Part shown: positions 34,826-56,544 of the stretch, in pieces
Numbering within the stretch: the first letter of the stretch is position 1
Layout of the letters: each line of letters opens with the position of its first letter
NCBI GenBank assembly: GCA_000004695.1
Contig: CM000151.3
Span: forward strand, 8,256,001-8,320,000
Source of the DNA: Dictyostelium discoideum
Taxonomy: Eukaryota
Direction of reading: 5' to 3'
Length of the DNA: 64,000 nt
Program-made: the position numbers and the translations under genes
The notes under the pieces: generated by a model
What the model saw: the letters and a program-made list of their open reading frames with translations, nothing else
What the model was told of the DNA's origin: nothing
Databases searched by the model: none

Positions 34826-34896
34826 GCCGTGATAGTATAGTGGTAGTACATCAGATTGTGGCTCTGTTGACCCTGGTTCGATTCCAGGTCGCGGCA
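34826..34896 (+). tRNA. tRNA-His(GUG): tRNA-His (anticodon GUG)
   Basis: Cloverleaf: acceptor GCCGTGA/TCGCGGC, A box TAGTATAGTGG, anticodon loop TTGTGGC (GTG), T arm CCTGG-TTCGATT-CCAGG, discriminator A. Immediately followed by a CTTTTTTCT Pol III terminator. Confidence 0.9.
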
Positions 34897-34905
34897 CTTT
34901 TTTCT
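34897..34905 (+). terminator. RNA polymerase III oligo-T terminator of the tRNA-His gene
   Basis: CTTTTTTCT directly after the discriminator base. Confidence 0.5.
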
Positions 34906-46903: not shown

Positions 46904-47591
46904 ATGTTAAAGAAATTTTTAATTTCAAGTATTGTTAAACCAACATTTCAAAGTAGAATTATAGCATCAACAACATTAAATGGTGGTGCAGGTAGAGCAA
47001 CATTTTGTTCAGTTAATAGTATTAATCCAAATCCAACAGCAAGTCAAATTAAAGTTGATCAAGAAGATTTAGAAGTTGGTGAACATCTTGTTATTGATGA
47101 TCCAAATCAACAACATATTAAATCATTTTTAAATGGTGTTGAATTTAATGGTAAATCAGTAAACATCTATAGACCATCAAGAAATACAATGCAAACTGGT
47201 ACACTTCGTACAAAGAAATGGGTCATTGAATTACCTTTTAATCCAAAATGGAATGATCGTTTAATGGGTTGGTGGGCTTCAAAAGATACTCTTAATCAAT
47301 TAAATTTAAGATTTAATTCTGAAACTGATGCTGTTGCATATTGTAAAGAAATTGGTGTGTATTTTAAATTTAAATTTAATTTAATTGTTAATTTAATTTA
47401 ATTGTTAATTTAATTTAATTGTTTATTAATTTATTAATTAATTATTATGATTTTAAATTGAAATTATAGGTTTAAATTATAATATTGTCGAAGAAGATGT
47501 CACATTAAGAAAGAAGAAGAAATATGGTCACAGATTCAGATATAGAGGTGATTTAGTAGGTGAAAAAGAAAGAGAAGTTGGTATTAATTAA
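46904..47591 (+). CDS. ndufs4: NADH dehydrogenase (ubiquinone) Fe-S protein 4, 18 kDa subunit (NDUFS4), mitochondrial precursor; exons 46904..47354 and 47470..47591
   Basis: MLKKFLISSIVKPTFQSRIIASTT presequence. ..NIYRPSRNTMQTGTLRTKKWVIELPFNPKWNDRLMGWWASKDTLNQLNLRFNSETDAVAYCKEIG| then donor GTGTGT and acceptor TTATAG| (phase 1), then GLNYNIVEEDVTLRKKKKYGHRFRYRGDLVGEKEREVGIN*. The upstream ATG at 46829 reads only poly-T and is probably not the start. Confidence 0.85.
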
Positions 47592-47966
47592 AAATGTTTA
47601 CAACACTTTTAAAAATTTAATAATATAATAATATAATAAATAATAATAAATAATAATATTGTGGTAGATTGGAGCCATTATTATTATTTTCAAAGAAAAA
47701 AAAAAAAAAAAAAAAAAAAGTAAAATAAAAAGTAATAAAAAAAAATAAAAAAAAAAGTATAAAATAATAAAAGTATACAGTACATTATAATCGATTAAAA
47801 AATTATTATCGTTATTTCATCAAAGTTTTTTTATTTATTTTAATTTTAGTGTGTTTATTTTATTTTTTAGAGTTGGATAACTTCCACAATTACTTTTTAT
47901 TTTGTAAAAGGGTTAATATTTGTATTATTAGTTGGGAGGGAATGAAAAAAAAAAAAAAAAAAAATA

Positions 47967-48010
47967 CAGTTGACGGGGGGTTTCTTAGAAGAATTGCTGT
48001 AAGGTCAACT
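47967..48010 (-). ncRNA. Class I non-coding RNA gene (Dictyostelium-specific family), copy 1
   Basis: Minus strand reads 5'-AGTTGACCTTACAGCAATTCTTCTAAGAAACCCCCCGTCAACTGT-3'. The 5' GTTGAC + CCTTACAGCAA 11-nt motif is conserved. The 3' GTCAAC can pair with the 5' end as a terminal stem. An oligo-T run follows. Confidence 0.6.
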
Positions 48011-48122
48011 TAATTATGTGGTAAATGTATTTTTTTTTTTTCACATTTAAAAAAAAGGATTATTAATAAATTATTTAAGAATTTTTAAACAAAAAATAAT
48101 TTTGTGGAATAACTGATCTCTG

Positions 48123-48164
<42 letters not shown>

Positions 48165-48315
48165 ATGTTTGGGTCTATTAAAAAAAAATTTTTTTTTTGT
48201 TGGTTTATTTATGTTTAGCCATTAATGGCAATATATCTTTTTTTTATTTTTTTTTTTATTTTTTTTGTTTTTTTTTCACCCATAATCAGAAAAAAAAAAA
48301 AAATAAAATAATAGA

Positions 48316-48369
48316 CAGTTGACAGGGGGTTTTCTTTTTATGTAGAGAATGAATTGCTGTAAGGTCAAC
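48316..48369 (-). ncRNA. Class I non-coding RNA gene, copy 2 (tandem, same orientation, ~360 bp from copy 1)
   Basis: Minus strand reads 5'-AGTTGACCTTACAGCAATTCATTCTCTACATAAAAAGAAAACCCCCTGTCAACTGTC-3'. Same conserved 5' motif and terminal stem. Confidence 0.6.
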
Positions 48370-48453
48370 TTAATTGTTTTATGATTACTTTTCACATTTT
48401 CTCATTTAATTTAAAAATAATATATTTCCCAATTTTATAAATAAAAAAAAAAT

Positions 48454-48461
48454 TTGTGGGA
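48454..48461 (-). promoter_or_regulatory. DUSE-like upstream element (TCCCACAA) ~85 bp upstream of Class I RNA copy 2
   Basis: Plus strand TTGTGGGA, which is TCCCACAA on the RNA strand and matches [AT]CCCA[CT]AA. A similar one-mismatch element (TTCCACAA, plus 48102-48109) sits ~92 bp upstream of copy 1. Confidence 0.4.
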
Positions 48462-48769
48462 TAAATAATAATAAAACAACCAAGTTCCATTCTTATAAAA
48501 TTACCAAATATTCAAGTTTTGCAAACTTTTTTTTTTTTTTTTATTCAATGGCTTTTTTTTTTTTATTACTTTTTTTATTATTACTTTTTTTTATTGATTA
48601 ATTATTTTTTTTTATTTTATTTTAATTTTATTTTTATTTTTTATTTTTTATTTAAAGAATTCTTTTTTAAAGTCATCGATTTTGGTATTGAAAAATGGAA
48701 ATAAAAAAAAATATAAAAAAAAAAATAAATATAAATGTACTAATGCCTTGAATTTAAAGTGAAATCCTA

Positions 48770-48800
<31 letters not shown>

Positions 48801-49620
48801 GAATTTAATATATTTTTTTTATAAAAAAAAAAAAACCAAATTCACTGTAAAAAAATTAAATCAGAATATATCTCAATTTTTTGATCAATCAAATAAAAAA
48901 TATATAAAAAAGAAATAAAGTTAAAACACAATCTTAACTAAATTTGCTGATTTTGGAAATGTGTGTAGATTCCACAAATTTTTTAAAAAAAATGAATAAA
49001 AAAAATGAAAAATTAAAAAAACTATGTAAAAAATTTAGTGACTTTTTACATAACTTTTTTTTTTTGTGGCCAACCGAATGTTTTTTTTTTTTTAAAAAAT
49101 TTTCAGTTTCGCTAACACTCAACAAAATAATTTTTATGACTTTTTTGAGGTCTTTTTTCAATCGTAATCAATAAAATGGTAATATCACATTAAATTTTAT
49201 ATGTAGAAATATACATACAAAGAAAAAAAAAAAAAAATAAAAAAAAAAATAAAATAAAATAATTGTTTATTTTATTCTCTTCTCTAAATATTTGCAATGA
49301 ATAATTACTTTGAAAAAAAAAAAATAATAATAATAATAAAATAAATAAATAAATAAAAAATAAATAAATAAAAAAAATAATAAAAAGTTGGAAAAAAAAA
49401 TAAATTAAGAAATCATTTATAGAAAATTAGCACAGATAAACAGCATTAGAAAAAAAAAAAAAAAAAAAAAAAAAAATGATAAAGGAAATATTATAAAAAA
49501 AAATAAAAAAAAAAAAGACAACCAAAACGAAGAAAAAAAAAAATACGAAAAAAAAAAAAAGTTTAAAATTTTCAATTTTTTTTTTTTTTTCATTTATCGA
49601 ATTTTTCTCAACAAATAGAA

Positions 49621-50165
49621 ATGGTACAGTAGTAGTATTAGTAGGAGATTTTAGTTATTCATTGCAATTTAGATAAGAGGAAAAATAAAAAAAAGAGAGA
49701 GATAATTTTTTTTTTTTTAATCTTTAGTGTATTTTTTAAAAAATTACTGTAAAAAAAAGATCACATTATTAATTGTAATAATAATTTTTTTTTTATATCA
49801 ATAAATAATTAGGCTAAAGAACGTGGTGATTTATTATTCCCAAGCATCGAATCCGAAAAACGTAAACATAAATTAAAGAGATTGGTCCAAGCACCAAACT
49901 CCTTCTTTATGGATATCAACTGTCACGGTTGTAGAACCATCACTACCGTTTTCTCACACGTAAGTTTTCTTGAAATAATAATAAAAAAATAATACTAAGA
50001 ACTTTGAAACTAATATATAATTTTTTTATTTTATTTTTTTAAATTACACTATAATAGGCCCAAAACGTTGTCATTTGCAGTTCATGTTCAACTGTTATTG
50101 CTCAACCAACTGGTGGTCGTGCTAGAATCACTGCCGGTTGTCGTTTAAGACAAAAATCCGACTAA
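49621..50165 (+). CDS. rps27: 40S ribosomal protein S27 (eS27); exons 49621..49623, 49813..49959, 50058..50165
   Basis: ATG-only exon 1 (ATG|GTACAG). Exon 2 gives [49 protein letters not shown]|GTAAGT. Exon 3 gives [35 protein letters not shown]. Colinear with human RPS27 including the C4 zinc-finger cysteines. Confidence 0.75.
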
Positions 50166-56444: not shown

Positions 56445-56544
56445 NNNNNNNNNNNNNNNNNNNNNNNNNNNNNNNNNNNNNNNNNNNNNNNNNNNNNNNN
56501 NNNNNNNNNNNNNNNNNNNNNNNNNNNNNNNNNNNNNNNNNNNN
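56445..56544. other. assembly gap (100 x N)
   Basis: Run of N read directly. The true size is unknown. Confidence 1.

Follow-up and report, generated by a model that had tools for sequence, protein, structure and literature searches.

Two Class I RNA genes in the spacer between ndufs4 and rps27

The DNA analyzed here comprises 64,000 nucleotides (nt) of Dictyostelium discoideum (contig CM000151.3 of assembly GCA_000004695.1, positions 8,256,001 to 8,320,000 of the forward strand) and is referred to as the window; positions are counted from its first letter. In the 1.58-kb spacer extending from the stop codon of ndufs4 (47591) to the start codon of rps27 (49176), two short units were detected on the strand opposite to both genes. 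They almost certainly correspond to DdR-45 and DdR-29, two Class I RNA genes that are already annotated and form a two-gene cluster in this spacer, DdR-29 being active and DdR-45 a silent paralogue. Both genes have for years been listed in dictyBase and in publications, and they do not represent a discovery. Class I genes are intergenic and frequently group into clusters with two or more distinct members (Kjellin et al. 2021, PMC7919456). A first-pass annotation, made from the letters alone, had recognized the units as Dictyostelium Class I RNAs, an assignment which is borne out by covariance-model scores and by identity with published genes.

Two references served for identification, the Rfam covariance model RF01414 (Dicty_Class_I_RNA) with its curated gathering score of 41.5 bits, and the curated D. 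discoideum Class I sequences and coordinates supplied as supplementary data with Kjellin et al. 2021 (PMC7919456). In the covariance-model scan, a check that the first-pass annotation had proposed, both units matched the model over its full length and above the gathering score, DdR-29 with 51.8 bits (E = 4e-7) and DdR-45 with 43.7 bits (E = 4.5e-5). Further matches to RF01414 were not obtained in the window, even in the permissive E-value mode of cmscan, and a scan of the window for the class motif (2 mismatches) plus stem revealed no extra Class I copies. String comparison by script demonstrated that the 43-nt unit is DdR-45 and the 54-nt unit DdR-29, letter for letter. The published positions are on the minus strand of chromosome 2, at DDB0232429:8303967-8304009 for DdR-45 and at DDB0232429:8304316-8304369 for DdR-29 (PMC7919456 files). 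The offset between window and published coordinates is exactly 8,256,000 at 4/4 gene ends, and a search for mismatches between the window and dictyBase chromosome 2 at 8,303,967-8,304,369 found none. The window thus corresponds to chromosome 2 of the AX4 reference (DDB0232429), about 8,256,001-8,320,000. In the authors' general feature format (GFF) file, a GenBank accession is given for r29 and none for r45 (PMC7919456). This pattern would agree with r29 having been cloned as complementary DNA and r45 having been predicted and later curated.

The RNA bodies exhibit the features of the class. Both units, starting at 48009 and 48369 as the first-pass annotation had described them, open with GTTGACCTTACAGCAA. 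The 11-nt motif CCTTACAGCAA adjoins the 5' stem half and is exact in both; with up to one mismatch allowed it has two matches in the window, compared to 0.34 expected by chance. A longer common 5' segment, GTTGACCTTACAGCAATTC, is present in the window only at the two units. Both units terminate in GTCAACTG, and the supposed pairing of the GTCAAC end with the 5' end was recovered by folding: a 6-bp GUUGAC/GUCAAC terminal stem forms in the minimum-free-energy and centroid folds of both units, while the 11-nt motif is unpaired in the predicted folds. Compared to shuffled sequences, the fold energy gave z = -2.3 for DdR-45 (43 nt) and z = -0.7 (-0.68) for DdR-29 (54 nt); a 6-bp stem is too short for a strong energy signal on its own. 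Both loci read ...TTAA followed by GTTGAC...GTCAACTGT, so that AA precedes the 5' G and a genomic CTGT stands at the 3' end, which are details of Class I genes (PMC7919456). The mature DdR-29 probably also includes the T at 48315, giving a 3' CUGU, and the genomic CTGT of DdR-45 reaches 47966. The loops differ between the units as the first-pass annotation had quoted them, the loop-specific sequence of DdR-45 being UUCUUCUAAGAAACCCCCC. Unit lengths are 43 and 54 nt, where about 45-55 nt had been estimated. Class I RNAs of D. discoideum range from 42 to 65 nt in length and from 32 to 41% in GC content (PMC7919456), and DdR-29 (54 nt, GC 0.39) lies within both ranges.

DdR-29 does not differ in any respect from the Dictyostelium Class I RNAs (RF01414; DdR-21 to DdR-67; Aspegren 2004, Avesson 2011, Kjellin 2021). 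Both units share with them the 5' G, the 6-bp stem, CCUUACAGCAA, the 3' CUGU, the clustered intergenic site and a promoter layout consisting of the Dictyostelium upstream sequence element (DUSE) and a TGTG box. DdR-45 departs from expressed members by its TTCCACAA, which stands in place of a DUSE with a CCC core, by a 33-nt spacer between TGTG box and RNA, by a GC content of 0.47 and by an almost complete lack of reads. A lineage-restricted class of non-coding RNA (ncRNA), its promoter element and the neighbouring genes were all recognizable from raw sequence, and the locus serves in this respect as a positive control. Coordinates of all features are compiled in Table 1.

Table 1. Features of the DdR-45/DdR-29 locus, of other parts of the window and of the orthologous loci. 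Positions refer to the window unless a locus is named; Table S2 is that of PMC7919456.
Feature	Position	Strand	Evidence and remarks
DdR-29 (r29, DDB_G0295535, GenBank AJ699390), 54-nt Class I RNA gene	48316..48369	-	RF01414, published sequence and coordinates, fold, RNA sequencing (RNA-seq)
DdR-29 DUSE TCCCACAA	48454..48461	-	3' end at -85, 61 nt from TGTG box; Table S2 duse_dist 85, inter_dist 61
DdR-29 TGTG box AAATGTG	48393..48399	-	3' end at -24; Table S2 TGTG-box_dist 24
DdR-29 downstream T-runs, putative RNA polymerase III terminator	48290..48308	-	TTTT 48305-48308, T14 48290-48303
DdR-45 (r45, DDB_G0295533), 43-nt Class I RNA gene, apparently silent	47967..48009	-	RF01414, published sequence and coordinates, fold
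DdR-45 variant DUSE TTCCACAA	48102..48109	-	3' end at -93, 60 nt from TGTG box
DdR-45 TGTG box AAATGTG	48042..48048	-	3' end at -33; Table S2 TGTG-box_dist 33
DdR-45 T20 run, putative RNA polymerase III terminator	47945..47964	-	two bases past CTGT
ndufs4	46904..47591 (exon 1 46904-47354, exon 2 47470-47591 including stop)	+	PF04800, E = 1.2e-22; splice sites from sequence
rps27, 85 amino acids	49176..50165 (exons 49176-49178, 49813-49959, 50058-50165)	+	PF01667, E = 1.1e-23
RNA polymerase III RPC4 subunit, open reading frame of 293 amino acids	45710-46591	+	PF05132, E = 3.7e-24
tRNA-His (GTG anticodon)	34826-34897	+	Rfam tRNA 65 bits; ARAGORN agrees
DdR-29-like gene	L003 7238-7288	-	cmscan 45.1 bits
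DdR-29-like gene	L004 7202-7254	-	motif-and-stem scan

Promoter layout

In Class I genes of D. discoideum the DUSE often lies at a greater distance than usual from the RNA, followed after about 60 nt by the TGTG box AAATGTG and then, at a variable distance, by the mature 5' end (PMC7919456). The DUSE has the consensus [AT]CCCA[CT]AA, and its place is some 60 nt ahead of either the start site or the TGTG box; T-runs downstream of many Class I genes have been taken as a likely RNA polymerase III signal (PMC7919456). For DdR-29, the motif distances measured here (85/24/61) are equal to the published values of Table S2 (PMC7919456), which answers the comparison with annotated ncRNA genes suggested by the first-pass annotation. 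DdR-29 has a DUSE of strict consensus, while the element of DdR-45 is one mismatch off and canonical in position: TTCCACAA and TCCCACAA differ by one C-to-T exchange at the first C of the CCC core. The annotation had placed the elements at -85 and -92, at a fixed distance from the RNAs. The first value was reproduced, the second is -93, and the DUSE is not fixed relative to the RNA 5' end because the 3' ends of the two elements lie at -85 and -93. It is the distance from DUSE to AAATGTG, a box absent from the annotation, that is constant (61 and 60 nt). A novel DUSE spacing was rejected, since the arrangement is the documented layout of DUSE and TGTG box (PMC7919456).

By itself, the octamer [AT]CCCA[CT]AA occurs in the window at about chance frequency (11 matches, 9.9 expected), and the information lies in its position alone. 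DUSE, a spacer of 50-58 nt and AAATGTG are combined nowhere in the window but at these two sites. Among the 14 AAATGTG sites of the window, two have a DUSE with up to one mismatch 55-65 nt upstream, and these belong to the two genes; the chance of finding such a DUSE at canonical spacing is about 0.005 per AAATGTG site. Judged by this placement, the variant DUSE of DdR-45 is a real element.

The same [AT]CCCA[CT]AA element with a spacing of about 60 nt is known from DUSE-dependent small nuclear RNA (snRNA) and other ncRNA genes (Hinas et al. 2006; Hinas and Soderbom 2007, via PMC7919456). Closely related copies of these genes often occur in nearby pairs, as they do here (PMC7919456). In the snRNA and ncRNA genes, however, the DUSE lies about 60 nt from the start site, whereas in the Class I pair AAATGTG occupies that place and the mature 5' end follows 24-33 nt further downstream.

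Promoter-like motifs were also seen on the plus strand, and they were compared with two genomes labelled D. discoideum at NCBI, L003 (GCA_054859355.1) and L004 (GCA_054859385.1). About 200 nt upstream of the rps27 ATG, an AAATGTG (48957) is followed 6 nt on by TTCCACAA (48970). This pair (48957-48977) consists of Class I promoter motifs in reversed order and close together; the TTCCACAA at 48970 is kept in L003 and L004, and AAATGTG is changed to TAATGTG in both. A consensus DUSE, ACCCATAA, is present at 48278-48285, about 30 nt past the DdR-29 3' end; its counterpart in L003 and L004 is AACCATAA. If it directed a start 60 nt downstream, transcription would begin antisense within DdR-29. This octamer may be due to chance, given the DUSE count in the window.

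Relationship between the two copies

The two genes lie in the same orientation with a start-to-start spacing of 360 bp, for which 358 bp had been stated earlier, and the gap between the units is 306 bp. Overall, the loci of DdR-45 and DdR-29 are about 75% identical (68% upstream), and their loops differ in length by 11 nt. These values agree with the first-pass view of distinct paralogues rather than a segmental duplicate, and a recent segmental duplication was rejected in view of the 75% identity and the unequal loop lengths. The upstream regions are more alike than their composition predicts (z = 5.1, and z = 3.1 with the motifs masked). As far as sequence comparison can tell, this likeness would fit an old tandem duplication, and part of it could come from constraints acting on Class I promoters in general. 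Within the common flank, the DdR-45 DUSE aligns column for column with that of DdR-29; in the alignment, DdR-45 has ATTCCACAA where all four copies of the DdR-29 lineage have ATCCCACAA.

Conservation in relatives

Orthologous loci were fetched by means of the spliced ndufs4 protein and compared by global MAFFT alignment. They comprised D. firmibasis (L001), D. dimigraforme (L002, GCA_054859025.1), L003, L004, D. purpureum (L005) and Polysphondylium violaceum (L006). The identity of L003 and L004 to the window is 97.7-99.3% in coding sequence but only about 90%, with many indels, in the ndufs4-rps27 spacer, which in both contains one Class I gene, compared to two in the reference. This gene is DdR-29, whose locus is 93% identical overall. 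In both genomes the DUSE, the TGTG box, the stem, the 11-nt motif and the 3' end are invariant, and substitutions and small indels are confined to the loop, a pattern that would be expected of a functional Class I gene. The DUSE ATCCCACAA of DdR-29 is invariant in L003, L004 and D. firmibasis. The near-identical copy of L004 was not reported in the E-value mode of cmscan although the L003 copy scored, an apparent loss to the speed filters of Infernal; hence, absence should not be read from cmscan alone.

No recognizable counterpart of DdR-45 was found in the L003, L004 and D. firmibasis loci by motif-stem scan, cmscan and alignment. A block of about 280 bp carrying DdR-45 and its promoter (about 47900-48175) is replaced in L003 and L004 by about 130-150 bp that are poorly alignable. 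When this sequence was examined as a decayed homologue of the DdR-45 block, z values of 0.9 and 2.4 were obtained. It contains suggestive fragments, namely AAATATAAAA.., AGTTG, TAAGAAAC and a T-run followed by CATT, which are not enough to choose between loss of DdR-45 in the L003 and L004 lineages and its gain in AX4.

In D. firmibasis, the spacer contains a single Class I gene, which is identical to the published DfiR-11 and matches DdR-29 in position. DfiR-11 shares with DdR-29 the site between ndufs4 and rps27 and the strand, has an identical stem and 11-nt motif, and aligns with DdR-29 at the TCCCACAA DUSE flank, at the TGTG-like ATTATGTG and at the 3' CTGTCT. Unlike DdR-29, it is a single gene and not one of a pair, has an unrelated loop, a locus that is only about 62-67% identical and a DUSE 72-73 nt from the RNA, and it scores 33.1 bits, under the RF01414 gathering score. 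The loci of the more distant D. dimigraforme, D. purpureum and P. violaceum were uninformative: cmscan and motif-stem scan revealed no Class I gene adjoining ndufs4, and the linkage to rps27 is disrupted or rearranged in these species. Within 6 kb downstream of ndufs4 in D. dimigraforme (L002 6652-12651), neither rps27 nor a Class I gene is present, which points to an interruption of the synteny seen in D. discoideum and D. firmibasis, with Rpc4-ndufs4 kept. Class I genes are described as clustered and seldom syntenic, most of their expansion having followed speciation (PMC7919456). The 2024 D. firmibasis genome paper reported only four syntenic regions with Class I or microRNA genes in both species.

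Proposed expression and function of the class

According to the proposed working, each gene would be read from a DUSE octamer with AAATGTG about 60 nt downstream and the conserved 5' G, preceded by AA, another 24-33 nt on. Transcription is probably carried out by RNA polymerase III and would end in the T-runs past the conserved CTGT. The TGTG box might act as a promoter element or as the start site of a precursor. The predicted product is an RNA of 43-54 nt whose ends form the 6-bp stem, with the 11-nt CCUUACAGCAA single-stranded beside the stem and a variable loop; DdR-45 would be silenced through the base change in its DUSE.

Class I RNAs are described, at the level of the class and not from DdR-29 or DdR-45, as abundant, developmentally regulated and cytoplasmic (PMC7919456). 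The case cited is DdR-21, which is cytoplasmic and directly bound by Rnp1A/CIBP, a protein with two RNA-recognition motifs (PMC7919456, citing Aspegren 2004, Avesson 2011). Loss of DdR-21 disturbs early aggregation and leads to more numerous and smaller fruiting bodies, and the working hypothesis of the authors is that Class I RNAs act as a protein sponge or buffer (PMC7919456).

Expression and the silence of DdR-45

RNA-seq counts were taken from Table S2 of PMC7919456, which covers six libraries, two each from 0, 4 and 8 h, of one strain. DdR-29 gave 41,922-76,311 reads per library (coverage flag 1, expressed), while DdR-45 gave 0, 0, 0, 1, 0 and 3 reads (flag 0, not expressed) (PMC7919456). 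The lack of discrete small-RNA expression, which the first-pass annotation had named as a ground for refutation, applies in these data to DdR-45, a member of the family by sequence that is apparently silent.

No expression is seen from high-scoring loci that have no correctly placed DUSE (PMC7919456), and all genes of Table S2 whose read counts reach the thousands or above possess a properly spaced DUSE with a CCC core. For DdR-45, the published pipeline registered TACCACAT at -7 as the best DUSE, and its DUSE distance was hence scored wrong (PMC7919456). Under the authors' matrix, TTCCACAA has a score of 5.97, as derived from the additive table scores, compared to 6.68 for TACCACAT; it is due to this slightly higher score of TACCACAT (FIMO) that the octamer at canonical spacing remained unregistered. 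The simplest reading appears to be that DdR-45 is a silenced paralogue, and the most likely cause of its silence would be the C-to-T exchange in the CCC core of its DUSE.

Taken further, DdR-45 can be regarded as a natural promoter mutant, that is, a tandem paralogue of the DdR-29 lineage present in AX4 and without recognizable counterpart in L003/L004 and D. firmibasis, whose body, TGTG box and spacing are intact and which has been silenced by a single C-to-T change in the DUSE. The chances of this being correct are about even. If so, the locus would be in-genome evidence that the D. discoideum DUSE requires its first C, and an example of rapid gain and loss of Class I genes. What is added to the published account is a small residue, namely that the silence of DdR-45 coincides with a one-base change in a DUSE at canonical spacing which the pipeline did not register. 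A second small increment is that the expressed DdR-29 is kept with its promoter in close relatives and DdR-45 is not. Both are of interest mainly to specialists in Dictyostelium ncRNA promoters.

Several points weigh against the picture of an active gene beside a silenced one and against its extension to promoter and function. The length of DdR-45 is within the class range, while its GC content of 0.47 exceeds the 32-41% of the class. RNA-seq sampling was confined to 0, 4 and 8 h of one strain. Four loci, DdR-62, r54, DdR-64 and DdR-57, have an acceptable DUSE and TGTG box and about zero reads (Table S2); an intact DUSE is thus necessary but not sufficient, and the silence of DdR-45 may have other causes. 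The distance of 33 nt from its TGTG box to the RNA is the longest in Table S2. The literature allows for two roles of the TGTG box, promoter element or start site of a precursor, and treats transcription by polymerase III as likely rather than settled. The functions described above were shown for DdR-21, and for DdR-29 and DdR-45 they are only putative.

It is possible, if less likely, that DdR-45 is silent for a reason other than its DUSE, such as the 33-nt spacer, a 37-nt T-run abutting the promoter, chromatin or instability of the 43-nt RNA. The four loci named above are unexpressed despite a consensus DUSE, a TGTG box and correct spacing, and loci with the box between DUSE and RNA have TGTG-box distances of 8-29 nt, compared to 33 nt in DdR-45. 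DdR-62, with 42 nt comparably short, has almost no reads. On the other hand, the short DdR-42 (45 nt) and DdR-44 (44 nt) are expressed, as are DdR-21 and DdR-51 with 29-nt spacers, DdR-21 being among the highest. The DUSE difference, moreover, is the one departure of DdR-45 at a position that is invariant in all well-expressed D. discoideum genes.

A functional DdR-45 that is expressed only under unsampled conditions (late development, spores, bacterial growth or stress), its two-C DUSE being a weak or regulated promoter, is improbable. The intact RNA body (11-nt motif without mismatch, fully paired 6-bp stem, AA in front of the 5' G, CTGT and T-run), the intact TGTG box with its 60-nt spacing and the restriction of the D. 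discoideum libraries to 0, 4 and 8 h would be in accordance with this explanation. DUSEs with two consecutive Cs are, besides, normal in Group 2 and 3 dictyostelids (PMC7919456). Those elements, however, carry A at position 2 (TACCA/AACCA) and not T, and under the authors' matrix the octamer with T at this position scores 5.97, compared to 11.1 for TACCACAA. Against 0-3 reads over six libraries stand more than 40,000 of its neighbour DdR-29. The gene is missing in the two close D. discoideum relatives L003 and L004 and in D. firmibasis, so that a comparison across lineages gives no indication of purifying selection on DdR-45.

That the motifs arose by chance in A/T-rich intergenic DNA and the units are not genes has practically no probability left and is already refuted: the DUSE octamer alone does occur at chance frequency and the fold energy of DdR-29 is ordinary compared to shuffles, but the Rfam E-values of both units, above the gathering score, the 19-nt identical 5' segment confined to them in the window, their identity with curated published genes, and the abundant expression of DdR-29 and its retention with promoter in relatives contradict it.

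Neighbouring genes

The neighbours named in the first-pass annotation, ndufs4 and rps27, were verified by PF04800 and PF01667. The ndufs4 protein is 99% identical to a D. discoideum protein at NCBI, and the length of the rps27 model corresponds to that annotated in D. firmibasis (85 amino acids). Exon 1 of rps27 apparently consists of the ATG alone; its GT donor lies at 49179, and the intron behind it measures 634 nt. The block 48975-49200, which takes in the surroundings of this exon and sequence upstream of it, is almost invariant compared to L003 and L004, while the whole spacer is about 90% identical; the block probably marks the promoter and 5' untranslated region of rps27.

Directly upstream of ndufs4, about 1.4 kb from the putatively polymerase III-transcribed Class I genes, lies a gene for the RPC4 subunit of this enzyme. 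Its closeness to the Class I genes is probably a coincidence. RPC4 orthologues are annotated at 411-435 amino acids; thus, the true gene probably has more 5' exons than the open reading frame listed in Table 1. An interval of exactly 100 N at 56445-56544 is presumably an assembly gap in the reference chromosome. Rpc4 and ndufs4 are also adjacent in D. firmibasis, D. dimigraforme, L003 and L004, and in the P. violaceum locus both genes are present with another gene in between.

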